A DNA stretch of 59,250 nucleotides from IMG/VR virus record IMGVR_UViG_3300043442_000948. One strand, 5' to 3'. Shown here one piece after another: positions 3,969 through 59,250 of this stretch; position 1 is the stretch's first letter; each line of letters opens with the position of its first letter. The DNA comes from an uncultured virus (IMG/VR IMGVR_UViG_3300043442_000948) (lineage: Duplodnaviria > Heunggongvirae > Uroviricota > Caudoviricetes). The notes beneath the pieces were generated by a model that worked only from the letters and a program-made list of their open reading frames with translations, ran no database searches and was not told where the DNA came from. Position numbers and translations under genes: made by a program.

Positions 3969-4001
3969 ACGACCCAACTCCTACTGAGTTGACGGCCATT
4001 T

Positions 4002-41500: not shown

Positions 41501-44500
41501 ATGGTGCCAGTGTCAATATGTAAACCAGCACCACGTTTGTACATCGAAGACTTGTAGGACATCTTCTTGGTTACAAACCCAGTGGGGCGGTGCTTCTTGC
41601 CACTGACGTGCCATGCTTCACCAGCAGGGCCGATGATGGTCATACCTAAGATGACACGCTGAGCAGTACCGATTAGGTCGCGTTCTTGCGTGTATGACCG
41701 GTAACCGCCGCGGATGCCGTAGAATCCAGGCGGCACAGTGCGTGCGGCTTGGTTATCATACTTAATCCCACGACCGTTTTCTAGCGCGGCAGCAAGTAAG
41801 GGACGACCTTCAACATCGATGACGCAACCGGAAGGTACAGACGTTGCTGCACGGAGCAGGATACGTTTTGAACCCTTTTCAACTTTCGTATTAAGGTTGA
41901 CAAAGAAGCCGGCTAAGTCACCAGAGTAACCAAGCTTAGCAACCCGCTTCTTCAGTCGGGCGTACCACTTCTTGGCATGCTTGGCTAGCAAACCACAGTC
42001 AACGTGGACTAGGTCACCGCGGAGGCCCGTTCCTTTGTTGAAGCTAAAGCCCATGCTATAGCATTCAGCAATACGGAAGATAACGGTCTCCAAGATACCG
42101 GAGTCTTTGACTTCCCCGCGCAAGCGGTAGCCACCGTAGTTGGTGGTCAGCTTCTCTGAACCTGCACCAGCGAAGTCCTTGACTTTTACCTTACCGTTGA
42201 CCACGGTCATTAGTTCAGGCTTGTGGATAGTCTGAACTTCCACTTCCTTACCTTCGACCTTCTTGGTTTCGGTGGTGAGCATCGTACCCACAATGTTGAA
42301 GCCACAGGCCTCAGCGTGGATAGTAGGGCCAGTCATGTTGACGGTACCGTCGCTCGTCACCGGGAAGTATTTGTCATACTTCGTGTGGAAGGCCTTCAGG
42401 TTGGAACTTATAGTGCGGCTATCCATACAGCTCATCAGCTTGCCGCTAAGCAAGGCTATGTAGCCATAATAGAAGAAGCGCATAAACGCTCCGTAGGAAG
42501 ATGTTGCCACGACGTCGTGAACAACTTTGACCATACCTTTCTTGGTCTTTTTGTTTTCCCACAGGACATCAATCACACCTTTGAACATGCGGGTGCGGTC
42601 GTTATCCACAACACCAATGTCATCAATGATGTAGACCAAACTACCATCTTCAATGTTGATGGCATTATCCACAAACTTGATAATTTTATCGGCGTTGGTG
42701 GTGTCAGTGGCATCATCCGGGTCAATTAGGTAACTCCGAATGATATTGACCAAGGCCTCAAAGTGCCCAACTTGCCAGTTGTAACCGCTCATCATGGGCA
42801 GGTTACCGATGGGGTCAACCCCGATACAGGCAGCCAAGTAAGCGTGGCAAGCGTAAGCAGCGGGACGTAGACCATAGTTAAGGTTCATAGTCCCTTCTTT
42901 GGTCACGGTATTGCTGCTAACCCAGCCAGCAAACTTCTCCATGCTAAAGTCTTGCCAGTTAACAGCGTTGAGTTGTTTAGAATCAACAGTTGTTAGGGCA
43001 GCGTAGTATGCCTTCAGCTCATCTGCCATGGAAGTATCGACGGCAGGAGGGGGAGTCAAAGCGTCAGCTAAGCTGGTCATATCTGGCTTGACTGAGGCAT
43101 TGTAGACGCTACGTTGGTACTCAGGGCCACCGTTGACCAAGTTGTCATAGGCTTTGCGAAGGGCCTGCATAAACAAACCGTCTTTACCAGTCCAACGGTC
43201 TGGAGCTTTAACAAGCTGCCCGTTCTTAATCAGGTTGTGGGTACAACCAGCTAAGAACTTAGCACCGCCGTGGTCGGAGATAGCTTGCAGTAACGGGCGG
43301 TGTTGCACCAACTTAGCTTCAAGTATCTCTACCATAAGTCCTAAGACATTGTCATCGGCTAGAGACTCCAAGCTTACCTTTGTCGCTTGGTAAGCATCTT
43401 CGGAGCGTTTGTAGTCAACGCCGAAGAACTTAATAGGCAACGCAGCAAGGTTGCTTAGCTGGTGGCCCAGCCCTGTTTCATAGGAGCTGATGTTAATCCC
43501 CACAGGAACCTCCGGTTTAGTAGGAGCAACTTCTTCTTTCTTGGTTACTTCTACTTGAGCGACAGGCGGCTTGCCAAGATTGACTTCAGTCAGGATGGAT
43601 GTCGGGCCATTCTTGAATCCTTTATCCAAACCTTCAACCAACCAGCTACGACCATATTCGCACAGGTCAAGACGTGGGTCGCCTTTGACTTTCGTATCAA
43701 CGAAGTCACTCTGCGGGAACATAGCTTTGGTTGTCTTGGTCTGACGCAAGAATCCATCACCGTACAGCGTGTCAACAATCGCTTCGTAGCAATGACTGTT
43801 GAAGTGGGTGATAGCACTGGGGTCAAACATGGCGCCTGGGTCATCCACAGACAGGAAGGTCATATGGTTGCAGTAGAAACGTGATTGAATCACTTTCTTG
43901 TGATTCTTAACGTCACCCACTACCTGGCCATTGACGACATCAACGTTGAGTTGACGCTGTTTAAAGCGCGGGTCAAACTCAGCATCTGCATCAGTCGCCT
44001 TACCAAAGCCATGTACACCATTGACTTCGGCTACGACCATAAACCAATAGCGTTTATTCGCTTCTGGCATACAGTTGAGCAGCCCGTCGGATTTGATGAC
44101 GTTGCTTCCCAACTGTTTAGGCTCAGTGCCATTTAGCAACAACTCTTTCAGCTTCCGGCGGCGGTCGGTTGATAGTACCGTGGGGGTAACGTCAACGTGA
44201 GCAGTCATCGCCAGTTTATCTTCAATTTTGTTTAGCTCATTGAAGACTAGCTGGATTTGAGCGTTACGGATGTTGGAGTTACGGTACCAGCCCTTGGTGC
44301 CAAAGAAGAAGTTGGCACAAGTCGGAGCTCCCGTCCGGTAGGCACGGGCTAGGAATACCATAACAGGTTCGTCATCACCCATTAGGTTGCCTAGGCCGGT
44401 GTGATTTAGCTTATGCTTTTCGTTTACCACATTGGGTAGACCTAACTCCTCGAAGTAGGTTTCCGTGTCGAACTGCCCACGAACCGGTAAGTTCAGGTTA

Positions 44501-47500
44501 CATGGGATAATTTCGTTGGCGTCGTTACGCATTAGGGGCACAAACCCCACAGAGTAACCCAAGACGTGGGCGTCGTTGAAAGCAAGCGTGTTGCTCATAC
44601 GTGCCACAATCTTGGTGCCAAACAAGCAATCAATGATTTCATTGACCATGTTTACCTCCTTAAGGTTAGGCTCTCCCTCTACTTTTTTCACGCCCGACTG
44701 CTGATTAACAGCGTCAGACGTTGGGGAAACGGGTCGACCTCCCGCCGTAGCACCAGCGTCAGCTGGAACCCCATTCATGTTCATTTGTAAATCACCAGCG
44801 CCGTATTTAGCTTTGGCAGAGGCCATGATAGCATCCGCTTGCGCTTGTATGGTAATTGGGACTACAGGAACCAGTGGTTCACCATCCAGGTCACCAAAGA
44901 ACCAGTCGTCCATAAACAAGTTCTCTTGGTCTAAGCCACGGTAGCGGTGTTTTGCTGGTTTATTCTCTAACAGCTGAGGACGTCCGAACTGCCAGGTATT
45001 CATTACCACTTGGAATAAGCGGTCACCGGTCGTTAAATCTATAGACCAATAACCAACTTCTTCGGTGTGATAAAGCGGCCCGTCCTCACCTGGGACACAT
45101 ATATCGAAGTAAATCGTACCTCGTACTGTGCCGCTAGCACGTCGGTTTTGGATAATAAGGCTAATACTGTCACCAGTCCAGTACTTAACCTCTTTCTCTT
45201 CCTTGGCATATATCATTTCACTGATAGTTTGGAAGAGCCAACCTTCTTGGATAGGCACCGCTTTTTCATACCCCATCTTTTCGCTGGGGCGAGCCACTTC
45301 CAACCGCTGTACGTTGTGTTGGTAGGCCAGGTAGGTGTTCCCAGCAACGTCCTCTACGTGGTAGTCATCTGTGCCAAGAGTACGCACGTAGTAGGTGAAC
45401 CCATTAACGTCCATTCCAACACGTTTGTTTTCTGGGTCATGTATAAGGTCACTATTCGGGCGACCAAAATGACCTATCAACAAGTCAATCGCACGCCGGT
45501 TAATCTGACGCCCTGGAAGTACATACTTAGGTGCCTCAATCACACCTGTTTGAGGGTTGTAAGATACTTTCTCTAACTCATGGACGTAGCATTTGCCTTG
45601 CTTGGCCCGTGTAGTATAGGTACGGTAAGTCAGACTCTTGTTAGCGCCTAAGTCGTAGACGTCGTAAGGCCCGAAACTATCACCGAAGCTATCCTGATAG
45701 CCAGCGCTATTAGACGGGCAGTACATTAAATAATGTCCGTCAGTGCGCTTTTCACCACTAAGCGGGTTTTCTGCGAGACCATCGGCGTTTACACCAACTA
45801 ACCCATACTCTCCACTGAGTATAGGTAACCCATGTTTGTAGCCGCGGGCTAAGCAAGTGCGGTGCCACCAGTCAGCAAGTTCGTGTAACTTACTGTTTAG
45901 TAATTCGACGCTTCCATAGACCCGGTCTACGAATAACCCTGATACTTCTGTGTAGTCAGCGTCAGCATACATCAACCGCAGTTTAGCGCGAGCTTGATAC
46001 CCCTTACCATCAATAGACCAAGGTTCACCAACGGTCCATAGGAACAGACTTGCTCCGTAGAACTTCTTGTCCCCATCTATTTCTATGAGGTCAAGGTCAT
46101 ACCCTTTGGGGTCAAACTCTTCTGTACGTTGGCAGCTCTTGTAATAAATACTGTTGCCTTGGTCATAAAGAGCGTACTCTTCTGTTTCCCAAACTTTGCT
46201 TTTTCCGTTAGTATCAACAGAAAGAAGCTTAGATACTTTATCAGCAGGAACACCTGCATTGATAAGTACCTTGCTAAGTTTGGGTGAACGGGAGCCTAGC
46301 TCTTTAGCACGCTCTTTGGTGAGTTGGCGGTCTTTCCATTCTTTATGGGTTAACCGAATGCCATACTGAGCCTTGATTAAAGCCAACATGGAGGCAGTTT
46401 CGTCAGGCAATGGCAATACGTCGACGATAGGAACCAATTGCATCTGAAGATCACCAACAGCGCCGTATTCACAACGGACGGTGTTGACGACTGTTTCAGC
46501 AACCATATCCTGAACGTCAACGAGCTGCCATGCAAACAACTCATCCATCACTTCGGCTGCCCGTTGATAAGCCTCTACCGCCAACTGGTGTTGGTGGTAA
46601 TCTTCTTGCCACGGTTCCAGCGGGTCGTCCCACTCATCAAACTGGTCTTCTTCACCGACCGGCCCTTCTTCAAATAAGGGCTCATACGTCCAGCAGGGCT
46701 TCCAGTCCTTCTGCTGATCACGTTTGACACCACCATAAAGATGGTTCAGGGCCGATTGACCATCTTTACGACGGTTATACGACCCGTCCGCCATCATTCG
46801 GCGGTAGTGAACTGATAAGGGGAGTTCATCTTCAGTCCGCCGAGTGCGACGGAACTTGCCAGTCTTAGCCATGGGGGTTTCGACTCCATTAGCTAACTGA
46901 AATCGTGAGTTGCCCTGGCGGAGGGCGTCGGACTTCATAGTACGGGTAACAGGCCGCTGGGTAGTCACAGTTGTGACCGTGGTCCGTTTGACCGGTGGGG
47001 TCACTACTTTATAGGTAGTGACTTTGGTTACTTGTCCGCCCCGGTGGGCATAAATACGAAGCCACTCGAAGTAGCCGAGACGGTCTGCTTTCCAGACCGT
47101 TTTGATTTTGCGCTGCTTACGTGCAGCAGCGCGCTGCTTGGTCGTCAAGGGACGACTGAGTTTGCTACCAGAATACTTTTGCCGGCGCTTGCGATTGGCG
47201 CGGGCAATCATTTGATTGATTTTGCGGGAATTCATTTGTTTAGCACGAACGGTTCGTGCGATATAGGTTTTGGCAATAAAGCCCTTACCGCCCCGACGAG
47301 GGGTGCCATTGCGGCGGGCAAGAAGGTGGGTGACTGAAACTAAACTGAAGCGGGCACGGTTCAATACACGGCGGGCTTGTTTATGGTTGTCGCGGGCAGT
47401 AGCGATGACCGTTGTGACATCATCAACTGTAGGGGTAGTAATAGTAGGGATAGTGGCCCGGACTTTCTTGACTAAAGACTCTGCCCACTCACGTCGGAGG

Positions 47501-47913
47501 TCGCAGTTATTGACGGGCTGGATACCATCACCATCAGGTAAAACATGGAATTGCACCGGCAGGGCCAGCAGAAGATTTAGAACAAGCAGCCCGCTTATGC
47601 GGGCAATGCGGGCTGGCGGGAGCGCCAGCTGGGGATTGGTAGCTGCGTCGATGGCAGCGTTAAATTCATCAAAGGTTCGCTGACGACGGGCTTCGGCATC
47701 AGCTGCCACTGCGGGGAGTCGCAGTTGGGTGGGAGCAGTGAAAGGTGTACTGCTGGGGGTAGACTCATCCCATGGTCCGAAATCACATATCGGAGTGTCC
47801 CACGGGTCGGCAATATAAATGTTTAAACAACCACCTATCAGAAAGCCGATGTGTGTGGGGCTGATTGCAGCGGTGATAGCGGAAGCAGCAACAGAGAATT
47901 GTTTGAAAGACAT
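35554..47913 (-). CDS. giant 4119-aa multidomain protein: NADAR-like domain, putative two-barrel RNA polymerase, C-terminal Pif1-like SF1B helicase
   Basis: Uninterrupted ORF, AGGA before ATG 47913; LSN..F.G..Y..SE.AYQA.K..M..IL.AK..QH (43141-43497); KIRSSVAKG..VDVVY (41101-41208); RAP (39532-39540); GDDDGD (39298-39315); GKAGTGKT (36859-36882), VIDEVSM, VGDGGQL, RQ, NG.RG, TINSCQGLT, YVMLSR. Confidence 0.8.
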   Translation of the reverse strand: MSFKQFSVAASAITAAISPTHIGFLIGGCLNIYIADPWDTPICDFGPWDESTPSSTPFTAPTQLRLPAVAADAEARRQRTFDEFNAAIDAATNPQLALPPARIARISGLLVLNLLLALPVQFHVLPDGDGIQPVNNCDLRREWAESLVKKVRATIPTITTPTVDDVTTVIATARDNHKQARRVLNRARFSLVSVTHLLARRNGTPRRGGKGFIAKTYIARTVRAKQMNSRKINQMIARANRKRRQKYSGSKLSRPLTTKQRAAARKQRKIKTVWKADRLGYFEWLRIYAHRGGQVTKVTTYKVVTPPVKRTTVTTVTTQRPVTRTMKSDALRQGNSRFQLANGVETPMAKTGKFRRTRRTEDELPLSVHYRRMMADGSYNRRKDGQSALNHLYGGVKRDQQKDWKPCWTYEPLFEEGPVGEEDQFDEWDDPLEPWQEDYHQHQLAVEAYQRAAEVMDELFAWQLVDVQDMVAETVVNTVRCEYGAVGDLQMQLVPIVDVLPLPDETASMLALIKAQYGIRLTHKEWKDRQLTKERAKELGSRSPKLSKVLINAGVPADKVSKLLSVDTNGKSKVWETEEYALYDQGNSIYYKSCQRTEEFDPKGYDLDLIEIDGDKKFYGASLFLWTVGEPWSIDGKGYQARAKLRLMYADADYTEVSGLFVDRVYGSVELLNSKLHELADWWHRTCLARGYKHGLPILSGEYGLVGVNADGLAENPLSGEKRTDGHYLMYCPSNSAGYQDSFGDSFGPYDVYDLGANKSLTYRTYTTRAKQGKCYVHELEKVSYNPQTGVIEAPKYVLPGRQINRRAIDLLIGHFGRPNSDLIHDPENKRVGMDVNGFTYYVRTLGTDDYHVEDVAGNTYLAYQHNVQRLEVARPSEKMGYEKAVPIQEGWLFQTISEMIYAKEEKEVKYWTGDSISLIIQNRRASGTVRGTIYFDICVPGEDGPLYHTEEVGYWSIDLTTGDRLFQVVMNTWQFGRPQLLENKPAKHRYRGLDQENLFMDDWFFGDLDGEPLVPVVPITIQAQADAIMASAKAKYGAGDLQMNMNGVPADAGATAGGRPVSPTSDAVNQQSGVKKVEGEPNLKEVNMVNEIIDCLFGTKIVARMSNTLAFNDAHVLGYSVGFVPLMRNDANEIIPCNLNLPVRGQFDTETYFEELGLPNVVNEKHKLNHTGLGNLMGDDEPVMVFLARAYRTGAPTCANFFFGTKGWYRNSNIRNAQIQLVFNELNKIEDKLAMTAHVDVTPTVLSTDRRRKLKELLLNGTEPKQLGSNVIKSDGLLNCMPEANKRYWFMVVAEVNGVHGFGKATDADAEFDPRFKQRQLNVDVVNGQVVGDVKNHKKVIQSRFYCNHMTFLSVDDPGAMFDPSAITHFNSHCYEAIVDTLYGDGFLRQTKTTKAMFPQSDFVDTKVKGDPRLDLCEYGRSWLVEGLDKGFKNGPTSILTEVNLGKPPVAQVEVTKKEEVAPTKPEVPVGINISSYETGLGHQLSNLAALPIKFFGVDYKRSEDAYQATKVSLESLADDNVLGLMVEILEAKLVQHRPLLQAISDHGGAKFLAGCTHNLIKNGQLVKAPDRWTGKDGLFMQALRKAYDNLVNGGPEYQRSVYNASVKPDMTSLADALTPPPAVDTSMADELKAYYAALTTVDSKQLNAVNWQDFSMEKFAGWVSSNTVTKEGTMNLNYGLRPAAYACHAYLAACIGVDPIGNLPMMSGYNWQVGHFEALVNIIRSYLIDPDDATDTTNADKIIKFVDNAINIEDGSLVYIIDDIGVVDNDRTRMFKGVIDVLWENKKTKKGMVKVVHDVVATSSYGAFMRFFYYGYIALLSGKLMSCMDSRTISSNLKAFHTKYDKYFPVTSDGTVNMTGPTIHAEACGFNIVGTMLTTETKKVEGKEVEVQTIHKPELMTVVNGKVKVKDFAGAGSEKLTTNYGGYRLRGEVKDSGILETVIFRIAECYSMGFSFNKGTGLRGDLVHVDCGLLAKHAKKWYARLKKRVAKLGYSGDLAGFFVNLNTKVEKGSKRILLRAATSVPSGCVIDVEGRPLLAAALENGRGIKYDNQAARTVPPGFYGIRGGYRSYTQERDLIGTAQRVILGMTIIGPAGEAWHVSGKKHRPTGFVTKKMSYKSSMYKRGAGLHIDTGTILMGCGYDVTQESKYGVNYTYYRPKALQEVGCGDVLAHVDTSVMLEGNRPYLRAIKQTRDIKGYLEWVRTYEVCSMVGGKEGTQLVVEWAITWKEDWPKIRSSVAKGMLASVKKEFIFNADNPGVTERLVDVVYTQDVIKADTLHWLIPIMGHTFVLNPDCVHPEFLWMVNRAMDINFEVQGRRHLDYLVECPVAIADGLYDELQQRFCAFFGRQITVDWQQLGAGDYGTELLKEYAAATKIGKMYNVTNCTRLRQDEEGAELNRDIIVYSDVNFNDPTVYGTEAEERANIFWFYMNPNHTKVLRYKQRSWAMVGREDCDCPIYDVVLFESSTVKEAAGESTQLGSSMRSNYRLLGCDTIREIMMGQAVRALEEPYRAKLLCAGYDGSMGTAGNKVINLCSWKTEKVRGDFVSKAVPNQQGLAEVHALLAGIDLNDPEDNLLFERICFALRNVILRVETTSARALKDNHLVKPKTDDEDVYFDADFDAEYGEDTTTKVGHIDIYAPLLFNLNSLKSGEESLDTMSGMLFYQYLIVLLAGQMPNGVDVNRIRGKLRALVESGNTAKNINGDTLVGGKALSLPNIPTWMLLISDTGRQFDLMSRHVRGYEHPAFDHETGEYTEDVIKHRLNDCPTFAQAVSKGHKAYKTPIFNHETRAPMPDGPLVLTTLLPNTVKELENFYYAPSDLEYIEYRDGQPLVDRKTKEPIVRVDSIYPDVRITSAIAHNMMTAGDDDGDGTYGAILPWKDAATKARLFAALTTAESALEFRANAVGRNEGESAFDVMLRKGCYWGDYMMPKNGRSRYKIAEQLGSYICVGGAVQHSVKDIELYKEENGVIVTTKDEKGKEQPVVLRTVTSYSAINARAREVFATMVGVSYGIYQMAEAIVDIVTALTKAGIEVPARFQWAVSDRAFLIVSAVAELYETILGAYSTAAWHMWKSFMEKIAKPKTIEKRKVANYITESTLPAFAEAVEDIGCNHTLAAAMANCFNVVADVKCWEKGNLYGEHAWAGAGLSEFIMYTALAQFEMGRGKWVGYFKGYLNGENEWDECKVGAHQFISRQLYHWFALGNSINGLEIPEGAFDHSHVLWVMRKIFQPEVLGDVLTHMPGAGYIFADKDGVRPAMDYFRYKLELRAGKQEDNNMELDPIVDITATVVESKPELTPVQEITWLNQELTNVNNGPKTEVPDEVQDDLGVDFYDREMPDCPDDYDDGWCGEYEDDGKEVSWNEINNAIATAEQPAEVAPEPADEDQDDRIYDELDAAYFDDEVSTEELNAAINGTTPAAVVTTEPIADPEPVVVVQQPVSPVVSPLAHVATSDELLANFKAEAEAIAKRKAEEQAYVKRLAEAEAVVANLRAQFGEEAVAELLSKFGYTNPTNGSCSDDKNEPEEPTGGSPTPKPEPKPSGDGGEAASPEPVQQITTTADSISHESAEPSGASSVLEPIINPTPNGVIATEEEEIAEDGTVTMVQTIDVEATPVVDNKKKEVTIVPTLEEATAMTVMSVKAPALPVKVEFTPGNYTTCQQKFMDLVAEGHHVFLTGKAGTGKTYITSECIHRWAAAGDKVVAFGTTGISVMNLAGNLEDGAVEASGTVNSGFALGIAFDSDDRGNENDWQWANKLIALAKVNDYVKENLTCKTGRLRVVIDEVSMLDARILYIVMEIIKYYNPLAQVLLVGDGGQLPVIGEDAVKFYKQAVIDGYLGTLPYMFGEFKVIELQTGVRQKDDRAFEEALDHLRETGEVTGVILERFKQCLEGLRPSNLDDVTYIYFNNKRVEDINERRTAEMTTAKRTYGGQVVYKAATNDKWLREFRPIPVDLTLAIGMPVKLRKNIYQIINSKKTLIAANGSRGRVTKLATNHVEVDFGDGKPLAIGAHEFVGRRLPNGTLSGIFIQLPLHADFATTINSCQGLTLTNPGVCGVFEDIKGETVALTREAALYVMLSRFTKIEDVYFDVSDPRAVNWFIGSQGHVDKEYFEWLKANRH
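37360..37376. repeat. dispersed palindrome copy 5 (inside CDS)
   Basis: GCACGAACCGTTCGTGG. Confidence 0.8.
47243..47259. repeat. dispersed palindrome copy 6 (inside CDS)
   Basis: GCACGAACGGTTCGTGC. Confidence 0.8.
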
Positions 47914-48029
47914 GATGTTTTTCCTACTTGACTTGGTTGAGTTTGGGTTAACGACGTCCATGCTTTTAACCGGAGCTTGACTGAACCGGGCGCACCTAAG
48001 CAAAAACCGACGCGGCTGTTAATTAGTGA

Positions 48030-49539: not shown

Positions 49540-50187
49540 TTATATTTTGAAGTTGCACTTTATTAATGCTTCTTCTAGGGTGTCTATGTACACACCCCCT
49601 ATACGCTGCTGGGTTTTCCACCAGCGACCTGGATATAGGTTCTCCCAATACCCAGTCCATGATATTCGGGTACCATTTAAATACCCATCTCCATCCTTAT
49701 CAACCCGGATGTGCTCCAGGATTGGGTAGAAGAAGATAAACATCTCTAAGGGCATGTCTTCTACCCACTTCGCCCAATTCGATAGGCCTTCCTTGAAGGT
49801 ATCGGGCGTTATTTCATCCCGAGTTTCATAGAAGACGACTTCCACTGTCGGGCCCTCCCCTACCCAGCACCCTTTTATATCAGGAGTTCGTAGGGCCCAC
49901 TCCTTATCGGAGTTGGGGTCTAATGTGTACCCCCGTAGGTCTTCGGGGAGCCGTGCTGGGCAGCACGTTAATAGTTTGGCAGTAGGGCCTGCTTCTTCAA
50001 TAGCCTTACGGAATGCAGCTGCGCACTCCAATCTTGTTACCCCTGTAACAGGGTTTAGGGCGTTGTGCCCTACGATATAGATGTTCCCATCTATATCATG
50101 TGTTATAGTTACCCCTTTCGAGGTGAACTCCTTGGCCTGTGCGGCCTGGGAGGTGGACACGTAGATGGAAGTAGATTTGGTATACAT
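49540..50187 (-). CDS. hypothetical protein
   Basis: 215-aa ORF flanked by ~31-bp direct repeats at 49489-49519 and 50219-50249. Confidence 0.75.
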   Translation of the reverse strand: MYTKSTSIYVSTSQAAQAKEFTSKGVTITHDIDGNIYIVGHNALNPVTGVTRLECAAAFRKAIEEAGPTAKLLTCCPARLPEDLRGYTLDPNSDKEWALRTPDIKGCWVGEGPTVEVVFYETRDEITPDTFKEGLSNWAKWVEDMPLEMFIFFYPILEHIRVDKDGDGYLNGTRISWTGYWENLYPGRWWKTQQRIGGVYIDTLEEALIKCNFKI

Positions 50188-52250: not shown

Positions 52251-53909
52251 CTACTTGAGGTTGTACTTAGTTATTAATAGGTCGATAGTATAAAAAGCCT
52301 TGTTTTTACGGACGGCGTAGAACTTATAGCTGATGATTACACCGGTGTAGATAATCCGTTCTGGATTCTCGGCTTTTGTGCCAGAAGCTCCAATATTAGA
52401 AGCTTGTACGGTAACCGTAACTTCCGTGCCTGGGAGTACCACTTCATCCATGAATAACTTGGCTTGGTTGTTAGCGCTGACGTCCTTGTCAAACGGTTCG
52501 GTGTAGGCTCCCATTAGCACATCGTTTTTGGATAGCGAAGCCCCGTCGCGTCCTTTATCTATATTTTCTTCGCCGGTCATTGCTCCAATTAGGTTCAGCA
52601 TGGAATTGTTAATCCCAATTGTCTGCACAACTGGGGTACAGCCAGGCACAACTATATTCTTGTGTTTGGTATCAATTCGGTGGAGTATCCCTGGCTTCAC
52701 TTCAGGGACTTCGATGTTACCAAACTTGGAGCCACCCCGGTTTTCCATTGCTGGCAGTAGGTCAAACCAGAAGGTCTTGGTTTTACCGCTAAGGTCACGG
52801 TATTTGACAGAAAATTTATCGTCTCGGTTGGCTCGGAACTTAGTATTGCTAGGAATGTTGAATCCCTTATTAGCATCAAACGGCTTGTTAGCATTAACGG
52901 CTGCTTGGGAAGCCAGTAGGAAAGACGAGTCTTCAATTGGCTGAACCGCGGTCGTGCGGGGGTTGATACCTTCTTTAGCCAGAACTTCTGTCTTCTTACC
53001 GATAAATGGAGCAATTGGTTTTGTTTCTTCTTTCTTGCCAATGAACGGGGCAATAGGGATAGTCTGCTCCTTACTATCCCATAAAGGAATAACAGGGATA
53101 GTCTGCTCCTTACTATCCCATAAAGGAATAACAGTGCTATCAATCTCAAAGGTGACTTCCCCTTTACTGCCGTCATAGGCGACCTCTTCTTTAGGCCCTA
53201 CTTTCCACAGCGGCGTCGGGCTTTTCCAGAGGGTATAAGCGCCTTGGAAAAAGCTAACGTTGTATTTGAGTCCGATTTTCAACCAAAGCCGTCTTAGCTC
53301 TTCCCGTTCCTTTGCTGGGTTATAGTTAGGCCCCGGCCATAAAGGTTTGGAACGGTTGTTGCTATCGATGGTTTTATTAACGTAGCCTTGCAGTCCAATA
53401 GCTGTCCACAATTTGATTAACTCACGGCGTTCCCGCTTTCTTTGTTCGTCAAGTCCTAAGTCCAACCAGGCTTCTTCGTTAACACCCAGCTGCGCCCAGT
53501 CGTCTTTGGTGAATCCCAACTGTTGCCAGGTCTCTTTGGTAAAGTTAAAGGCTAGTAACTCATTAGTGGTGTAGCCTAAAGCAAGAAAGTCGGCTTTCTT
53601 GAATCCCAGCTTTAACCAGTCTGCCCGCTCAAACCCATAGCGCACAAAGTCGTCTTTAACGAACCCTAGATTCAACAGCCGCTGTTTGTCAAAGACGTAT
53701 AACCAGTCTGCTTTCTGGAATCCCAACTGAACCAGTTCGTTTTTGGTTAAGTTAAGGTCTAACCAATCCTGACGGCTCTTGCCGAAACTGGCTAGCTGTT
53801 GTTTTGTAATCTTTAGCTGCCGCCAGAGTTCTTCTAACTTAAGCCGTTCTTCTTCTGCTTCATTGATTAACGGCTCGTTTGGGTCAATGATAAACTCTAG
53901 TTCGTCCAT
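52251..53909 (-). CDS. repeat-containing putative tail/baseplate-associated protein
   Basis: GGAGG RBS; ~10-aa LGFxKxD(W/F) repeats, 13-aa repeats, globular C-terminal domain. Confidence 0.7.
   Translation of the reverse strand: MDELEFIIDPNEPLINEAEEERLKLEELWRQLKITKQQLASFGKSRQDWLDLNLTKNELVQLGFQKADWLYVFDKQRLLNLGFVKDDFVRYGFERADWLKLGFKKADFLALGYTTNELLAFNFTKETWQQLGFTKDDWAQLGVNEEAWLDLGLDEQRKRERRELIKLWTAIGLQGYVNKTIDSNNRSKPLWPGPNYNPAKEREELRRLWLKIGLKYNVSFFQGAYTLWKSPTPLWKVGPKEEVAYDGSKGEVTFEIDSTVIPLWDSKEQTIPVIPLWDSKEQTIPIAPFIGKKEETKPIAPFIGKKTEVLAKEGINPRTTAVQPIEDSSFLLASQAAVNANKPFDANKGFNIPSNTKFRANRDDKFSVKYRDLSGKTKTFWFDLLPAMENRGGSKFGNIEVPEVKPGILHRIDTKHKNIVVPGCTPVVQTIGINNSMLNLIGAMTGEENIDKGRDGASLSKNDVLMGAYTEPFDKDVSANNQAKLFMDEVVLPGTEVTVTVQASNIGASGTKAENPERIIYTGVIISYKFYAVRKNKAFYTIDLLITKYNLK
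53055..53134. repeat. perfect 39-bp tandem duplication inside CDS
   Basis: AGGGATAGTCTGCTCCTTACTATCCCATAAAGGAATAAC x2 (VIPLWDSKEQTIP). Confidence 0.9.
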
Positions 53910-53910
53910 C

Positions 53911-54435
53911 CTAAACCTCCACTACTTCTTTAATATTCTCGATAGCGTTGGTTGTGATTTGAATCGGCGGGTTGTGGCGCAGGTAAAAAAGGTCAGCAGA
54001 CTCTACATCACCCGTTTGGATAAAGGAGCTGGTATCCGTGCCGTACTTAAAGACCGCATTTTTATAAAGTCCAATGCTTCGGTACGACCGGGGGATACCA
54101 TCAATAACGTCGTTGTGAATCAATGTCCCTTCTATTAGAACAAAGCGGCAGCGGGTTTTGGTTAGCAATTCCAGGTCGTTTTCAACACTAACTAAGTTAT
54201 ACCCATTGATAATTAACTCTGCGTCTTCAGGGCGGCGGGTAACCAACACAGGCCGGGCGGTGACCCGGATAAACCCAAAGCACTCTTCTTGCACGCTGGT
54301 GTACTTGTTAGGTGGGTCAGGATTTAAGTCAGCTATCCAAGGCGAAGTTCTACCAAATCCTAAGAGTAGCTTAGTGTGATTGCTTATTTCCTGAACCCGG
54401 AGGGCTTGCGCCTGTTGGACAATAATAGACTTCAT
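53911..54435 (-). CDS. putative baseplate wedge-type protein
   Basis: LGFGRTSPW..NPDPP and YRSIGL motifs resembling myovirus baseplate subunits. Confidence 0.55.
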   Translation of the reverse strand: MKSIIVQQAQALRVQEISNHTKLLLGFGRTSPWIADLNPDPPNKYTSVQEECFGFIRVTARPVLVTRRPEDAELIINGYNLVSVENDLELLTKTRCRFVLIEGTLIHNDVIDGIPRSYRSIGLYKNAVFKYGTDTSSFIQTGDVESADLFYLRHNPPIQITTNAIENIKEVVEV

Positions 54436-54468
54436 CTGTAGCAAAAATAAAACCTTACTATTATCAAC

Positions 54469-57400
54469 CTAACCGAAACCTAACAGTTGAGCGGTGGTAG
54501 GGGAATCAGTGTCTTCTGATATAACTTGTATATACTCTTGGATGGATAACGCAACGTTCGTCCCGCCTGCTGCTGACTGAACAATGTCCCCTTTATTTCG
54601 TTCCACGGAGATTGGAACACCCCCGTCGGTTTCCATAACTTCCATATCGTCAGAGTCCTCTTCGTTGCCTAGTAAGTTTTGGGATAAGTAATTATAGATA
54701 TTTTGGGCGCTGCTCATCATACTCTTGACAACGTCTGCCATAAACTCGTCTTGGCTGACGGTTGTTTCTGGTAAAGGCCGTTGGGAAATCATTCCACCTA
54801 CAGCCATACCGATCACCCCGCTGGCGACTTCCGTGACGATTCTGCCCACACCGGTTTGCCCAGCAATTCCTTCGACGCCAGCTAGACCACTTCGTCTTGA
54901 GTCGACGGCTTGACCCAGTAAGGAGCCTGTCATTACTGCCCCACTGTAGACCAATTCACTCAACGCAGCACGGGCTAAACCTTCCGTCGGGCTTTCGTAG
55001 TTCATAAGGAACTGCTGCATCCGTCCGAATTGGAACTTATTAGCCACGTTAGCCATTCGTTTAAGGGACGCGGTATCTGTGTTAGGAGACACAAAGCTCC
55101 GTAGTGCTGACTCTTCGTAGGAGTTGTACATTACCGCCGACTGAATAACATCTGCGCTCAGACTGGTTAACTGCTGGGTTATAGGAATATCCCCCTGCAT
55201 CATAGAGAACAGCAGGGGCACTGCCAAGATACTAACTCCTTCCGCTACAGTGTTCATCCGTTGCAGCTGCTGGTGCAAGGCGGCTTGCTGCTGCGCCGTT
55301 GCTCTTAACTCCATACTGCGGTCTGTTTGGTCAATAATCTTATGTACTCGGCGCATAACGTCGTTTGCTGGGCTTTCAAAGGTTCGCTCCCCTAAGTTGC
55401 GCTGCTCTTCTTCATAAGCAAGGTAACCTTCATTCAGCCTTGACTGGTTAAGAACGTCTACTTCCTTCCGTAGGTTTTCCAACTCAATAATTTGGCTTTG
55501 GGCCTCCGCAGAACTGACGTCTAACGTGGCTAGGTGCGCTGTCTTCTGGGCAATCATTTCTGTCAGAGTGTTCTGCAGGCTTGCCATGCCCATCTGAGCG
55601 TGTTGGTAAGCATTAGCACTCGCAACCTGCTCCAAGGCCCCGCGGTCAGCGGTCAGGGCCTGTATTAATTTGTTTTGGAACTCGACCCGCTCGCTGGTGT
55701 CTAAGCCTTGGGTCGTCGCTTCTATCATTGGTAGAACGTTCTGTGGAATAGCTCCCCCTAAGGACAAAGCAGCGAACACAGCTCGGGTCTCTGTTTCCGT
55801 TAAGGGAATCTTATTCCCATCGGCATCGGTGCGACCTTGGTGTTGATTCACAGCGTCTACAATATCTAACACGCTCTTAGCAAAGGCTTTAGGTAGTGAT
55901 TCGCCGACTAACTTCCCGGCGTCCAAAGCGTACTGCTGCGCTTGGAATTCTATTGCTAATGAAGAGTAGGTTTTCTGCTGGTCGATTAGTGCTTCGTGGA
56001 GCCTTGAAGTCTGTCCGTTAGCCGCGATTTCGCTTACGGCTTGGTTGAAGGCTCGTAGGTTTTCTAAAGCCGGGATTAACTGCTGGGTCTGCCCAGCAAC
56101 CGTATGCTCGATTAGACCACCGAAGACCGCTTTGGTTAAAGACTTATCGCTTAAGGAGGCAGTTTGGTCTTTAGTCTTCTGTTGGTTAATAGCACTTCTT
56201 ATAGCGTGTTGCTGGGCTGCTAGCTGTTCTTCACTTTCGCTGCGCTGGTCCGCCAGCCGTCCTTGGATATTATCCAAAGCTTCGCCAGGGCCATACTTTT
56301 GTTGCAGTAAAGTACCGGCCATTTCTTCAACAGCGGCAAGCTTTTCGTTAAGCGTTTCATAGTTACCCTCGATACCATTAAGAATACCAAAGGCAGTTTG
56401 GCTGAAGTCTTTGAACGTTTGGGGTACGTCTGCTTCGCCACCGACCTTGATGTCCAAATAAGACTGAACATTTTTGATATGGTCTTCAGCACTGGCTAAC
56501 CGTAAAGCGTTCTGGTCTACAACGGTTCCTTCAGCGTTTAGACCATAGAATTTCAAAGCCGCGTCGGTTTCTTCGTTCTTGATGTAATCCATGTTTTCCA
56601 GGTTGGCGTCAATAATAAACTGTGCCTGGAACTTGTTGAGCATATCTGCCAAAACAAAGGTGGTCAGCTTGCTATCGTTGATAGCGCCGTCGACGACAAT
56701 CTGCCGTGCTATCTCGGGGTCAAGGCTATTAGTTTCTAACGCTGCTTGGTACCGCTCTTTTACATGTTTCAGTGTTTCTCCATAGGAGCTATTGTCCATT
56801 AGATTACGAGCCGAGTTACCGGTGCCACCGACGTAGTCTGTTAGCAGTTTTAGCGCAGCAAAGGATGTCAACGCCGAAGTTTCTTCTACGGTAACTCCAG
56901 TTACGTCACCACCATAGTTGTAGGCTAACCCTTTGTTTGCCATGGTTCCTAGGAAGTCTTGGCTAATAATCTGGATGTACTTAGCTCTCTGGTCTTGGTC
57001 GGTGTACTGCGACTCCCGTTGAATAATCTCCGCGTAGCCTTTTAACGCGCTGAGTTCTTCCTGCTCGGTAACCCCAATCTTCCTGAGTTGTTCTAAAGCA
57101 GCAGGGCTGACTGTATATTCCAGTAATCGTCCGCTTAGCCCGCCGGCCTGCTTAGGTTTCAAGGCGCTATCCCGTAGATACTGTTGGGTTGTTAATAGCA
57201 GTCGGTATATAGTGCTATTCATTTCTTCTGTGTTGCGGGTGGCCATACGCCACGGCACGATTTCACCAGCGGTGACAGCGTTTTGAGTCAGCTGGTTTTT
57301 CATTAGTTCTAAAGCGTCCCCAACATTCCCGTCCGCTTCAACCTGGCTAAATCCCCGCTCTACGGACTCGTTAAAGCTCTTGACCATATCTGGGTCTAAC

Positions 57401-59250
57401 AACATTCGGTTGAAGGATATATTTGCGGACAGGCCAGCACTAATTGGCACCACAGTGTTATAGACTTTCCCTAACAGCGAGCCCCCGGTGGTACCCATAA
57501 TGGCCTGCATCGAGCCCAAGCCTTCTGGGTCTATCGTCGTACCGGAGACGTTGCCTAGGATTTTTGACATACTAAACATTGACATAACCGTAGACTCAGT
57601 CTGGGCTTGGTACTCACTGACCGCGCTGACGTAGTCTTGAGTGTTAATGCCTTGGGTTTGGCTGGCTAAGAAAGCCTGATAACTACTGGACTGCTCGAAC
57701 TGCTGCGCCCAGAACATGAAGTTACTCTGTACCCGGTTGATAGCCCGGTCGCCTAATTCGTGAATGCCAGCTGAAAAACCAATGCCTTGGATTTTGCTAT
57801 CACCATCAAAAAGAATGTTGTTAATGTAGGTGTATCGTCCAATTTCACCCCGCTGGAGTCCAGTTTCTAAACTGAAGCCGCCTAGTGTGTCTCGGAACTG
57901 CTTAACCATTCCGCGCAGCGCTTCGTCTTTGAAAACTGTGGCACCAGTAATCTGCTTGTTGCCAACTAACTGTTGGGGTAAAGCGGTATAACTACCAATG
58001 TAACTCCGCAGGCCTTCATAGGCATACTCAGCCCGACCTTGCTTAGTTCTTAACACTTCTTCTTTAGCAGCATCTATAATGCTTTCTGCTTGGGTAATAC
58101 TTCCTTTTGCTAATAGAATCTGACTTTCTAACCAAGCTCTCTGGGCGGCATACTCACTGGCGCTTACGTTTAAACCTGCGTTACTGTTTTGGTCTCTGTC
58201 CAACGACATTAACTGCCGCTCAAAGCGTTTGATTTGAACAGTATTCTCGGAGATCGTACCAGTGGCTTGGTTAATCTTACTCAGCGCAGCCTGGAAGGAG
58301 TCCCCGTCGTAGTCCCCTAAGCCGGTGAACTCAAAGCCGAAAGCGCTGAGCAACATTAATGTAGACGCTGCGCTTTCGTTAGATACGAAGTAGCTGTTTA
58401 ACTCCTGAGCCCGGCGGTTGGTTTCTGTAATCCGAATGGATTGCTTAGCGATAGCATTAAGCGCATGTCCACTGGTAGGGGAGCTGGTGCCAAAGGGAGC
58501 CCCTTGCCGGCCTGTTAGTACGGCTCCAGCACCTACTTTCTCTTCGATGCGGTCAACGACTTTATCAATCTCCATGGGGTTGAAGTCTTGACCCATAATT
58601 GTAGCCGCCACGATATAGGTCAGGTCTTCATTGTTCATCAAGCGGCGGAATAACTCCTGCTCGGTGACTGCCTGCCATTGAGGATTATCATAAAGAGCAG
58701 CATACTTTCTGAGCAGGTTAGCCCAGTGGCTTAGTTGTTTAGTTAGCTTTCCTACATCAGGGTAATTTCCATAAACGTCTGCTTCTTGACGTAGCAGCCG
58801 AACGACTTGACGCTCTTCTGTCTCGATAACGTCTTCATTGCTGTTAAGCACTGGCTGAATGTTAGCATACCCAACCCGCTGCTGTATCTGCGCTTCATAA
58901 GCCTGACGTTGTTGTTGAGTAAGTCTTGACATGCTTAAGGTAGCCTGCTCAAAAGCGGGGGTCATATTACTTAATAGTGTTTCCTGTCTTGCAAGCTCTT
59001 CACTATTAACTGTCCCTTGTTGCCCTTCCAGAGCGTTAAGTCTATCAATTTGGTTGTTGTAGTTCTGAACTGTTAGTTTGTTCTGGGCATAGGCTAACAA
59101 CCCTTCTACTTCGTTCAGCCGGACATCTAACTGTTGTTGGTTAAGGTTGTAGTCAATGTTTAGCTTGAAGTAGGACGGGCCCAGCGTCTGCGTCCGTTTG
59201 TTCTCCACAAAACTAACTGCTTCTTCTACCTGCTGAAGCCGCTGGGTTAG
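54469..59250 (-). CDS. giant virion-module protein (C-terminal >1590 aa) with GDYDGD RNA-polymerase-type motif; truncated by window end
   Basis: Frame stays open from 59208 to 59250; RQGAP (58495-58509) 65 aa before DYDGD (58300-58314); long helical, Gln/Ala-rich tape-measure-like C-terminus. Confidence 0.7.
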   Translation of the reverse strand, partial: LTQRLQQVEEAVSFVENKRTQTLGPSYFKLNIDYNLNQQQLDVRLNEVEGLLAYAQNKLTVQNYNNQIDRLNALEGQQGTVNSEELARQETLLSNMTPAFEQATLSMSRLTQQQRQAYEAQIQQRVGYANIQPVLNSNEDVIETEERQVVRLLRQEADVYGNYPDVGKLTKQLSHWANLLRKYAALYDNPQWQAVTEQELFRRLMNNEDLTYIVAATIMGQDFNPMEIDKVVDRIEEKVGAGAVLTGRQGAPFGTSSPTSGHALNAIAKQSIRITETNRRAQELNSYFVSNESAASTLMLLSAFGFEFTGLGDYDGDSFQAALSKINQATGTISENTVQIKRFERQLMSLDRDQNSNAGLNVSASEYAAQRAWLESQILLAKGSITQAESIIDAAKEEVLRTKQGRAEYAYEGLRSYIGSYTALPQQLVGNKQITGATVFKDEALRGMVKQFRDTLGGFSLETGLQRGEIGRYTYINNILFDGDSKIQGIGFSAGIHELGDRAINRVQSNFMFWAQQFEQSSSYQAFLASQTQGINTQDYVSAVSEYQAQTESTVMSMFSMSKILGNVSGTTIDPEGLGSMQAIMGTTGGSLLGKVYNTVVPISAGLSANISFNRMLLDPDMVKSFNESVERGFSQVEADGNVGDALELMKNQLTQNAVTAGEIVPWRMATRNTEEMNSTIYRLLLTTQQYLRDSALKPKQAGGLSGRLLEYTVSPAALEQLRKIGVTEQEELSALKGYAEIIQRESQYTDQDQRAKYIQIISQDFLGTMANKGLAYNYGGDVTGVTVEETSALTSFAALKLLTDYVGGTGNSARNLMDNSSYGETLKHVKERYQAALETNSLDPEIARQIVVDGAINDSKLTTFVLADMLNKFQAQFIIDANLENMDYIKNEETDAALKFYGLNAEGTVVDQNALRLASAEDHIKNVQSYLDIKVGGEADVPQTFKDFSQTAFGILNGIEGNYETLNEKLAAVEEMAGTLLQQKYGPGEALDNIQGRLADQRSESEEQLAAQQHAIRSAINQQKTKDQTASLSDKSLTKAVFGGLIEHTVAGQTQQLIPALENLRAFNQAVSEIAANGQTSRLHEALIDQQKTYSSLAIEFQAQQYALDAGKLVGESLPKAFAKSVLDIVDAVNQHQGRTDADGNKIPLTETETRAVFAALSLGGAIPQNVLPMIEATTQGLDTSERVEFQNKLIQALTADRGALEQVASANAYQHAQMGMASLQNTLTEMIAQKTAHLATLDVSSAEAQSQIIELENLRKEVDVLNQSRLNEGYLAYEEEQRNLGERTFESPANDVMRRVHKIIDQTDRSMELRATAQQQAALHQQLQRMNTVAEGVSILAVPLLFSMMQGDIPITQQLTSLSADVIQSAVMYNSYEESALRSFVSPNTDTASLKRMANVANKFQFGRMQQFLMNYESPTEGLARAALSELVYSGAVMTGSLLGQAVDSRRSGLAGVEGIAGQTGVGRIVTEVASGVIGMAVGGMISQRPLPETTVSQDEFMADVVKSMMSSAQNIYNYLSQNLLGNEEDSDDMEVMETDGGVPISVERNKGDIVQSAAGGTNVALSIQEYIQVISEDTDSPTTAQLLGFG

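Follow-up and report, generated by a model that had tools for sequence, protein, structure and literature searches.

The window, a 59,250-nucleotide stretch of an uncultured virus (IMG/VR IMGVR_UViG_3300043442_000948), ends inside a giant gene of the virion module, whose product belongs to an unannotated family with an invariant G-D-x-D-G-D motif (Table 1). Judged from the sequence, this motif is a functionally constrained site of a giant protein, and the family is a candidate very diverged, virion-delivered two-barrel polymerase, a reading whose chances we put a little below even. A virion-packaged RNA polymerase had been proposed in a preliminary description of this DNA. The invariant motif, the position in the virion module and an Arg/Lys block upstream speak for that proposal; the barrel and a match to a known polymerase did not emerge.

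As described earlier, the open reading frame runs off the right edge of the window, with 1,593 residues free of stop codons. The closest relative (L017) is 60% identical to the window protein and has an ORF of at least 4,811 aa that is open at the start of its locus, and another close relative (L001; 50-55% identity) is 5,112 aa long. We estimate that the window holds about the last third of a protein of roughly 4,800-5,100 residues in full, the first 3,200-3,500 codons or so lying beyond the window edge. Family members are mostly 3,000-5,400 aa long and form 96 clusters among 1.84 billion representatives. An alignment of 10 full-length relatives retrieved 15 family loci from IMG/VR, where the window protein as a single query found no match. 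Six further loci occur in metagenome contigs and one in genome contigs, the latter on an 11.6-kb contig of an Actinomycetales MAG that is uninformative on the host. No match was obtained among GenBank phages by megablast or tblastn with the window part, or by tblastn with the 1,200-aa core of another relative (L015).

Table 1. Features of the giant gene and its downstream neighbours, in window coordinates and in the order of transcription.
Feature	Position	Strand	Remarks
Giant gene, 3' part	54469..59250	-	last 1,593 codons and stop; 5' end missing
GRQGAP (aa 247-252)	58495..58512	-	R-x-G-x-P block; Asp triad follows after about 60 residues
GLGDYDGDSFQ (aa 310-320)	58291..58323	-	invariant G-D-b-D-G-D, aromatic at +2; candidate Mg2+-binding triad
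Long, coiled-coil-like helical hairpin directly after the motif	58051..58293	-	helices predicted by AlphaFold
VKQFRDTLGG block (aa 449-458)	57877..57906	-	K, Q, R, D, T invariant in 10 full-length relatives
MGTTGGSLLGKVYNTVVP, glycine-rich conserved block (aa 585-602)	57445..57498	-	G, Y, N, P columns invariant
QQYLRDSALKPK, conserved block (aa 689-700)	57151..57186	-	R, D, K invariant
Poorly conserved helical stretch, Ala/Gln/Glu/Leu-rich, 'tape-measure-like' (aa 860-1330)	55261..56673	-	
SILAVPLLFSMMQGDIPI, conserved moderately hydrophobic segment (aa 1340-1357)	55180..55233	-	S, A, P columns conserved
Second conserved hydrophobic segment, Gly-rich (aa 1472-1492)	54775..54837	-	
Acidic tail after second hydrophobic segment	54619-54666	-	
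Baseplate-wedge-like virion protein, downstream neighbour	53911..54444	-	PF25691, phrog_1394
Next neighbour, 552 aa	52251..53909	-	phrog_37225 part match; syntenic in relatives
Third neighbour, 337 aa	51230..52243	-	no family; syntenic in 10 related loci

Both strings on which the polymerase proposal was built are present, GLGDYDGDSF (aa 310-319, window 58294-58323) following GRQGAP at a spacing of 63 residues rather than the 65 first reported. Translated in all six frames, the window contains three D.DGD strings, namely the giant's motif, a GDDDGD in a 4,149-aa ORF and an EF-hand-like DKDGDG in the ORF at 49540-50187, so that the motif by itself is unremarkable and its conservation is what is remarkable. 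GD.DGD is kept in 97 of the 101 family proteins examined, the other four being fragments of 303-940 aa, and in every one of the 85 members that reach 3,000 aa, although overall identity is 20-30%; a spurious low-complexity match (P0099) was excluded before the count. This conservation refutes the idea that GD.DGD arose by chance in a helical protein of low complexity, an idea that the three D.DGD of the window might have favoured and that we regard as hardly credible. From the composition of the window protein, 0.013 occurrences of D.DGD and 0.001 of GD.DGD would be expected. The middle residue of the motif in the 97 proteins is Y (45), F (39), N (5), W (5) or another residue (3); 84 of them have Y or F at +2. 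The preliminary description took GDYDGD to be the QDE-1-type catalytic loop. The passages of the QDE-1 paper name D1007, D1009 and D1011 and do not spell out the string.

The block upstream of the triad is similarly constrained. Across 17 sequences R and G of R-x-G-x-P never vary and P is conserved to 90% or more, a 57-row alignment likewise shows no change of the arginine, and the expression R.[GSA].[PL] finds a match upstream of GD.DGD in 78 of the 97 proteins. Just 11 columns of the 57-row alignment are invariant: this R, G-D-x-D-G-D, two G, and the R-D..K of the QQYLRDSALKPK block (R1187, D1188 and K1192), a block whose own regular expression matches 79 of the 97 proteins. Such a charged set is typical of a nucleotidyl-transfer site.

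Full-length relatives place these blocks in a common architecture. An N-terminal PLD-type phosphodiesterase domain with two H-x-K motifs is followed by a conserved core of ~1,400 residues, in which G.R....KGP and S/P-Q-x-KGF are found. A variable coiled-coil linker then leads to the module present in the window (R-x-G-A-P, ~60 residues, G-D-(Y/F)-D-G-D-x-(Y/F), RDT, GxLLGxxYN and RD..KPK), and an Ala/Gln-rich helical rod with two hydrophobic segments ends the chain. The lysine-bearing block that was to be sought upstream has a counterpart here, as G.R....KGP and then S/P-Q-x-KGF precede the motif by 825-2,200 residues; the R and KGP are conserved in 25 of 25 aligned full-length or long relatives and to at least 90% in the 57 rows. 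The PLD-like domain lies outside the window and carries the features of its superfamily, two H-x-K motifs with downstream N/E, with H270/K272, H491/S492/K493, N292, N513 and E524 invariant in all 10 full-length relatives. PLDc_2 matches six of these 10 weakly (E 6.8e-5 to 2.5e-3, all below the 27-bit cut-off), and apart from this weak PLD signal no Pfam or PHROGs family matched the window protein or 22 relatives.

Beyond GLGDYDGDSF the window protein continues for 1,274 residues, in keeping with the more than 1,200 residues of helical, tape-measure-like sequence reported earlier. The hairpin directly after the motif is predicted as helices 197-237 and 245-303 in one AlphaFold model and 886-963 in a second, and the only PDB profile or VIA matches of this region are coiled coils and helical hairpins. 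Residues 860-1330 consist of 13% A, 10.7% Q and 10.7% L, and their look-alikes are weak tape-measure matches only, at noise level. The SILAVPLLFSMMQGDIPI segment reaches a transmembrane-like Kyte-Doolittle score in relatives and not in the window's own copy.

We compared the family with RNA polymerases at the level of motifs, profiles and folds. As a sequence motif, not as a barrel, the D-x-D-x-D triad has the DbDGD form of two-barrel polymerases: the E. coli beta-prime (rpoC) sequence has NADFDGD at 458, and the two P23-45 enzymes have DFDGD at 779 (gp96) and DYDGD at 326 (gp64), each with an R-x-P 39 residues earlier (FRNP at 740 and NRRP at 287, respectively). Unbiased local hhalign of a 1,200-column family profile with E. 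coli beta-prime gave a top alignment that pairs R.A.GDR....G.S.IA..S.L with residues 340-361, which hold GKRVDYSGRSVI. Aligned alone, the R.A.GDR block falls on beta-prime 334-361 with a weak P of 0.036, upstream of and collinear with the match of the Asp motif at 460-468. Block by block against E. coli beta and beta-prime, two of eight blocks landed at the places expected for a polymerase, one of them being the selecting motif. The family Arg/Lys blocks gave no hhalign alignment with GRHGNKG or PSRMN of beta, and hhalign reproduced none of the pairings made by eye (G.R..KGP and GRHGNKG; PSQ.KGF and PSRMN; RDT and the bridge helix; G.LLG..YN and the trigger loop), to which we give no weight; the best beta-prime matches of the RDT and G.LLG..YN blocks lie away from the bridge helix (785) and trigger loop (928). 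With P23-45 gp96 and gp64, 5-10 motif columns aligned and nothing else. The Arg/Lys block stands at least 825 residues before the triad in the family, and the candidate blocks, located by reading the sequences by eye, are 84 residues apart in gp64 and 231 in gp96; the wider spacing in the family, compared with these compact enzymes, weighs against the polymerase reading.

Profile searches of the PDB with four family alignments (A2, A5, A6 and A7) and one single-sequence search returned no polymerase at E values up to 10. A5 gave nothing at all, A6 one designed TPR protein (E 4.7), and A7 Spy and an archaeal Spt5 NGN domain (E 0.02-0.09), which we judged to be chance or short-hairpin likenesses. 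Neither curated polymerase families nor solved polymerases thus show similarity to the family in profile searches; passages of PMC10770324 describe missing profile similarity as usual for diverged viral families.

Two AlphaFold2 models, built from 14 and 44 alignment rows, reached mean pLDDT values of 52.8 and 64.7. They consist of helices and coil, with no barrel or strands around the motifs and with all three candidate barrel segments below pLDDT 50; the second model has four short strands ahead of the G.R....KGP and Q.KGF blocks. The helical character stated in the preliminary description agrees with these low-confidence models, which are nearly all helix, whereas the structure prediction it called for yielded no double-psi barrel at either motif with any tool, both motif regions having pLDDT <50. 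Foldseek found nothing in the PDB at E <= 0.001, and with the second model Foldseek against the PDB and a VIA-wide search drew helical noise and no polymerase (ABC transporters, Nup188, Get1 hairpins; Z <=8.9). The crAss-like phi14:2 gp66 and N. crassa QDE-1 were absent from the Foldseek and VIA matches of these models, which are poor at the motif regions, and because these regions are unmodelled, missing polymerases in the fold searches are uninformative. A two-chain prediction for the relative L015, combining the Arg/Lys region, the Asp-triad region and Mg, scored 0.01 against a mark of 0.32 with an uncertain fold of the partner, and counts neither way. The best ESM Atlas scores were 0.80 for the window part and 0.75 for a fragment (P0059), both at noise level and with no Atlas structure for either.

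A predicted, almost wholly helical protein with its motif in a helix-loop-helix setting, at this low confidence, is also what might be expected of an injected structural or 'polyvalent' giant, that is, a tape-measure or ejection protein with a nuclease- or phospholipase-type PLD cargo and a Ca2+/Mg2+ site of a non-polymerase kind. The GD-x-DGD loop could then, for instance, stabilise the fold, act as a gate or form the centre of some other hydrolase or transferase, and the protein would breach the envelope and deliver the DNA with no role in transcription. We consider this possible but somewhat doubtful. It accords with the position of the gene immediately upstream of baseplate genes, with the hydrophobic C-terminal segments, with the N-terminal PLD-like domain, which suits an envelope- or DNA-attacking cargo, and with the lack of a statistical link between the family and polymerases. 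The look-alikes that carry names in the ESM-feature and BFVD searches, all at noise level, likewise are tape-measure, minor-tail and 'large polyvalent protein associated domain' proteins. However, the window part matches no TMP, SLT, peptidase or other Pfam/PHROG family, purely structural metal sites are rarely accompanied by invariant R, R-D and K columns across 400 residues and by a second conserved Arg/Lys block, and two-barrel polymerases show exactly this G-D-bulky-D-G-D-x-aromatic form.

The genomic setting of the giant suits a particle protein. It lies within a virion morphogenesis module in every relative, adjoining genes for the portal, a protease and the major capsid protein in all 15 IMG/VR loci and in Microcystis phage Ma-LMM01. 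Its reported location upstream of baseplate-like genes is borne out by the next gene (53911-54444), which matches phrog_1394 and, with 38 bits against a cut-off of 27, PF25691 ('baseplate wedge 3 tail fiber network component'); a homologue directly follows the giant in 15 of the 19 related loci with DNA past its stop. In being placed just upstream of baseplate genes, and in its long Ala/Gln-rich helical rod and hydrophobic segments near the C-terminus, the giant resembles a tape measure protein. It differs in that portal-side genes precede it in the relatives, with no recognisable tube or chaperone genes there, and in that no TMP family of Pfam or PHROGs matches, which leaves position and composition as the sole basis of the earlier tape-measure label. 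The tail sheath family PF04984 gave a weak match in one of five relatives.

The family has a member in a cultured phage. Ma-LMM01 gp080 (BAF36171.1, 3,562 aa, 'hypothetical protein') was first met as the sole significant BFVD fold match of the second AlphaFold model (E 4.8e-4, prob 0.97), under the UniProt-derived name 'PLD phosphodiesterase domain-containing protein', and then found by profile search to be a true family member (window-region profile E 1.3e-22). Its copy of the motif reads GDFDGD (residue 2536), QQMLRDAIKPK follows at 2865, and its gene adjoins the portal gene. It is shorter than the window giant and too distant from it for tblastn or phmmer; its gene is not followed by a baseplate-wedge-like gene, and the sheath gene of Ma-LMM01 lies ~10 kb away on the opposite strand. 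The term 'cyanophage' used earlier is borne out for the family, through gp080, and not for the window's own host.

No function for gp080 and no virion proteome for the family came up in the literature searched, which did not extend to the 2008 Ma-LMM01 genome paper and its gels of virion proteins. In the Ma-LMM01 transcriptome, gp080 falls in expression subclass B5 ('middle'), with log2 FPKM of 0, 0, 7.3 and 8.5 at 0, 1, 3 and 6 h, and capsid and sheath genes fall in the late class B4 (PMC5780444 Table S3). A polymerase-like enzyme that acts in middle-phase transcription or replication, stays out of the particle and is encoded beside structural genes by chance would fit this class and the lack of a family virion proteome in the literature searched. 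We hold this to be improbable. B5 comprises 162 of the 182 Ma-LMM01 genes, terminase and lysozyme included, and is uninformative for that reason, while a gene position conserved between those of portal and baseplate, together with a hydrophobic, rod-like C-terminus, suits a particle protein.

On the reading as a virion-delivered polymerase, the giant would be made with the particle proteins and most likely enter the host with the DNA. The Asp-triad module and the upstream Arg/Lys block would together form a very diverged single-chain two-barrel nucleotide polymerase, in which the three aspartates may hold the catalytic Mg2+ and the Arg/Lys residues the product and NTP. The helical, hydrophobic C-terminus might act in the tail lumen or in ejection and take the enzyme along the tail. 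The giant would then be a virion RNA polymerase that starts early transcription, for which the preliminary description proposed the 26.9-50.5 kb block as target.

Known systems offer parallels to this reading. P23-45 gp96, a tape-measure-fused virion RNA polymerase (PMC10770324), is a giant tail-module protein of 5,002 aa with a D-F-D-G-D triad and an R-x-P ~40 residues upstream, is followed by tail-tip genes and occurs in a phage with a second polymerase; it was first recognised by its motif alone and later proven, and the rest of the protein is described in that paper as without detectable similarity to known RNAPs. The gp96 polymerase is N-terminal, with an active core at 327-1124 followed by metallopeptidase and transmembrane parts. 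The window family does not share this layout: its triad lies in the last third (~65-75% of the length), preceded by the PLD-like domain and then by over 2,000 residues of core, and the searches detected no peptidase. The arrangement would thus differ from gp96 even if the principle is the same. Activity and structure are proven for gp96, and the window family is known from its sequence. As described, phi14:2 gp66, which is packaged in the virion, and QDE-1 are large single chains whose first barrel carries basic residues and whose second carries the Asp triad, a likeness to the window family by description rather than by sequence.

Among cultured phages, Ma-LMM01 and its relatives serve as the principal models for toxic Microcystis blooms. 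These phages have been described as lacking an RNA polymerase and as depending on host sigma-70 in all three expression classes, a view that leaves the temporal programme unexplained. A sigma-70 factor is encoded by the window and by three of five relatives (tblastn with the factor pointed to no host), and sigma-70-like promoters precede all gene classes in the Ma-LMM01 transcriptome; the host polymerase is therefore certainly used by these phages, a point against the polymerase reading. In its favour, no recognisable RNA polymerase gene (PF00623, PF00940) occurs in any of five near-complete relatives of 190-217 kb. In a conserved giant of the particle module with a polymerase-type triad, a cultured phage offers a concrete candidate for a transcription enzyme delivered by injection. 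In its fullest form, which we find conceivable though open to considerable doubt, the proposal is that Ma-LMM01-like cyanomyophages and a wide clade of uncultured relatives of ~160-220 kb inject one protein of ~3,500-5,400 residues that joins a PLD nuclease or phospholipase, a new and extremely diverged lineage of single-chain two-barrel RNAP, marked by very large inserts between and within the barrels, and a tail-lumen rod, and that fires the compact early cluster (gp054-gp063 in Ma-LMM01) in place of the host sigma-70 holoenzyme. If true, this would explain early expression without a change in host transcription. Confirmation of the polymerase reading would add a third architecture of virion two-barrel polymerase to those of crAss gp66 and P23-45 gp96, and would show that such enzymes can diverge so far that today's profile and structure-prediction tools miss them. 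Should the polymerase reading be false, the family would still be a large unannotated class of delivered giants comprising 96 clusters, in which a metal site is invariant and a PLD domain is the cargo.

The preliminary description had paired the window protein with a second giant in the manner of P23-45. The second giant of the window (35554-48003) has no phmmer similarity to the family, and a paralogue pair of the P23-45 kind is unsupported. The co-occurrence of two giants itself recurs, as a second GDDDGD giant is present in four of five near-complete relatives of ~200 kb.

We translated the open reading frame at the end of the window, which had been put forward as a candidate virion RNA polymerase, and collected its motifs, its neighbours and the parts of its full-length relatives in the table below. 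Both motifs and the frame can be read directly in the window, so the observation in the preliminary description is correct: a giant ORF, open at the window edge, carries GRQGAP and an Asp triad that is a candidate Mg2+ site. Only the spacing of the two motifs needs correction, from 65 to 63 residues. The giant was also said to lie upstream of baseplate-like genes, and the family matches of the adjoining gene bear this out.

Features of the giant ORF, its neighbours and its full-length relatives
Feature	Position	Strand	Details
Target giant, C-terminal part	54469..59250	-	1,593 sense codons plus stop; frame open at last window base
GRQGAP	residues 247-252 of window protein	-	ORF translation
GLGDYDGDSF	residues 310-319 of window protein	-	ORF translation; 1,274 residues after motif
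First gene after giant, same strand		-	177 aa; PF25691 'baseplate wedge 3 tail fiber network component', 38 bits (cut-off 27); phrog_1394
Second gene after giant	52251-53909	-	552 aa; partial match to phrog_37225
Third gene after giant		-	337 aa; no family match (Pfam, PHROGs)
Relatives, N-terminal region	H270/K272 and H491/K493 (numbering of database protein P0002)		two invariant H-x-K motifs; 10 full-length relatives
Relatives, core	about 1,400 residues		conserved across 85 sequences; holds G.R....KGP, S/P-Q-x-KGF-x-F-E, G.LLGLD and R.A.GDR....G.S.IA..SFL....E...G.R
Relatives, linker	about 100 to 700 residues		between core and module seen in window
Relatives, module seen in window	after linker		contains triad

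The 552-aa protein contains LGF.K.DW-type runs, each some ten residues long, with a weak, below cut-off match to PF25296 'Decapeptide', and a duplicated KEQTIPxxPLWDS / KKEETKPIAPFIGKK stretch. Its gene is syntenic behind the baseplate-wedge-like gene in most relatives.

The window protein has no match in Pfam or PHROGs, none in GenBank phages and, as a lone query, none in IMG/VR. A word-indexed search limited to longer proteins recovered ten relatives of 3,771-4,505 aa; residues 3051-4467 of P0002 align with residues 143-1551 of the window protein at 32% identity, with the motif kept. The alignment of the ten full-length relatives, used as query, gave 15 IMG/VR loci, and a metagenome scan added six further loci. 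The ORF of the closest relative, locus L017 (60% identity), spans at least 4,811 aa and is open at the locus start, and that of the next closest, L001 (50-55% identity), spans 5,112 aa; from these sizes, the window's gene is probably about 4,800-5,100 codons long, with two thirds of it beyond the window. Searched exhaustively with a profile, 1.84 billion representatives yielded 96 clusters at E <= 0.001 (90 at <= 1e-10), and 85 of the 101 family proteins examined reach at least 3,000 aa. One database protein, P0099, was excluded as a low-complexity false match.

GD.DGD occurs in 97 of the 101 proteins, including all 85 of at least 3,000 aa; the four lacking it are fragments of 303-940 aa. Its middle residue is Y in 45, F in 39, N in 5, W in 5 and another residue in 3, and an aromatic Y/F lies two positions past the last Asp in 84 of the 97. 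Across 57 aligned rows, whose mean column identity is 12%, only eleven columns are invariant: the R of R-x-G-A-P, G-D-x-D-G-D, two G in G.LLG..YN, and the R, D and K of QQ.LRD..KPK. From composition, D.DGD would be expected 0.013 times in the window protein. The string alone is unremarkable; its family-wide invariance is not due to chance. The 'IRxxxxKG' block proposed for the upstream region has a counterpart in the Arg/Lys block G.R....KGP, present in all 25 aligned relatives and at least 90% conserved in 57 rows. The S/P-Q-x-KGF-x-F-E motif sits 30-55 residues past it. In one of our alignments (A7), the relatives' block I-[FY]-A-I-L-S-P-S-Q-I-K-G-F-N-F weakly resembles the strand-turn-strand of archaeal Spt5/NusG NGN among PDB sequences (E 0.06-0.09), probably by chance. 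PLDc_2 weakly matches the N-terminal region in six of the ten relatives, always under the cut-off.

A portal gene lies no more than about 1.5-3 kb from the giant in all 15 IMG/VR loci, upstream and divergent in 14 and downstream in L013, with protease-like and major-capsid genes farther out. Directly after the giant's stop, 15 of the 19 loci with DNA there carry a baseplate-wedge-like homologue (L013, L015, L021 and L022 do not), followed in most of these loci by homologues of the 552-aa and 337-aa genes. The target is a genuine giant of the virion module: conserved, unannotated and marked by an invariant polymerase-type Asp triad. Next to this setting, an enzyme that bears the triad and is not packaged appears improbable.

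The triad takes the polymerase form seen in E. coli beta-prime (NADFDGD at 458, NRAPTLH at 424) and in the virion and non-virion two-barrel RNA polymerases of Thermus phage P23-45, gp96 (DFDGD at 779, FRNP at 740) and gp64 (DYDGD at 326, NRRP at 287); the family's R-x-G-A-P precedes it by about 60 residues. In the best local hhalign of a 1,200-column family profile against beta-prime, the R.A.GDR..G.S.IA..S.L block pairs with residues 340-361, containing GKRVDYSGRSVI; aligned alone, the R.A.GDR block falls on 334-361 (P 0.036), upstream of the triad and in the correct order. The remaining six blocks missed the expected beta and beta-prime motifs, and alignment with gp96 and gp64 was limited to the motif columns. 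When the whole window region and three focused blocks were run as profiles against PDB, no polymerase came up, even at E as high as 10. AlphaFold2 models of window residues 120-900 (14 rows) and L015 residues 1190-2389 (44 rows) reached pLDDT 52.8 and 64.7, with the would-be barrel segments below 50 and in coil or helix, and Foldseek and VIA returned helical look-alikes only. A delivered structural or 'polyvalent' protein, whose invariant Asp residues would form a metal site of a different kind, is a serious contender that we hold to be somewhat less likely than a polymerase. Passages of the P23-45 paper (PMC10770324) describe many viral two-barrel families without significant similarity outside the motif region; the negative searches therefore tell less strongly against a polymerase than they would if the enzyme were of an ordinary kind. 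The claim rests on motifs, order and context, and we tentatively give a diverged two-barrel polymerase, delivered along with the DNA, slightly less than an even chance. Such an enzyme may transcribe the 26.9-50.5 kb block, as the preliminary description proposed. The label 'tape-measure fusion' was not established. The parts are ordered differently from those of gp96: in this family the PLD-like domain comes first and the triad only in the last third.

Sigma70_r2 was matched in three of five records searched, but not in relative contig G004 or Microcystis phage Ma-LMM01. Five relatives' contigs are 190-217 kb long and 91-100% complete (CheckV). PF00623 and PF00940 gave no match in any of the five near-complete relatives, the PF00940 blank being weak as its control gave no match anywhere.

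The sole significant match of the second model in a BFVD fold search was a chunk of a Microcystis phage LMM01 'PLD phosphodiesterase domain-containing protein' (E 4.8e-4, prob 0.97). A profile search of the Ma-LMM01 genome found a 3,565-aa open frame (E 1.3e-22). This frame is gp080, annotated as a 'hypothetical protein' of 3,562 aa, and its gene and the portal gene stand back to back. The protein carries both GDFDGD (residue 2536) and QQMLRDAIKPK (residue 2865). Because gp080 is a family member and L001 head genes fall into PHROGs founded on Ma-LMM01 proteins (phrog_30785, phrog_32941, phrog_28006), the window's lineage is related to Ma-LMM01-like cyanomyophages. This kinship to a cultured phage makes the polymerase question directly testable. 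The transcriptome paper (PMC5780444), in the portions available, places ten early genes, gp054-gp063, within one 5.8-kb block, predicts sigma-70-like promoters for every expression class and recognises no phage polymerase. Its Table S3 assigns gp080 to subclass B5, which says little, since B5 takes in 162 of 182 phage genes. The accessible part of the MaMV-DH01 paper likewise describes a genome without RNA polymerase, and names virion mass spectrometry as a task still ahead. In Ma-LMM01 (AB231700), the early block (37.5-43.2 kb) is on gp080's strand, a short way downstream of both a 42-bp tandem repeat array (43271-43551) and the 1,673-aa gp064. The window has a similar layout, in which small unknown ORFs on the minus strand (26.9-35.4 kb) lie downstream of its other giant.

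That 4,149-aa ORF (35554-48003, minus strand) bears GDDDGD (residue ~2898), and its C-terminal part is a Dda/PIF1-like helicase (phrog_325, E 1e-39). A phmmer comparison showed no similarity between it and the target family, and no homologue was found in Ma-LMM01; four of the five near-complete relatives carry homologues about 10-20 kb downstream of the target giant, on the same strand. The window's third D.DGD is an EF-hand-like DKDGDGYLNG loop in a 215-aa minus-strand ORF (49540-50187); none of the related loci searched has a homologue of this ORF. Overall gene content is phage-like, with RecA/UvsX, integrase, thymidylate synthase, tail fibre and fibre-chaperone genes, a sigma-70 factor and PhoH. 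A 1,615-aa plus-strand protein (14452-19299) has at least seven Ig I-set-like domains (PF07679, E 1.6e-62; phrog_3995 tail protein), and the next gene encodes a tail-fibre assembly chaperone, after which comes, on the opposite strand, the sigma-70 factor. The RecA/UvsX-like recombinase and tyrosine integrase (385-1374 and 2826-3977, minus strand) are both in this phage, and IMG/VR lists the contig of one relative, G002, as a provirus.
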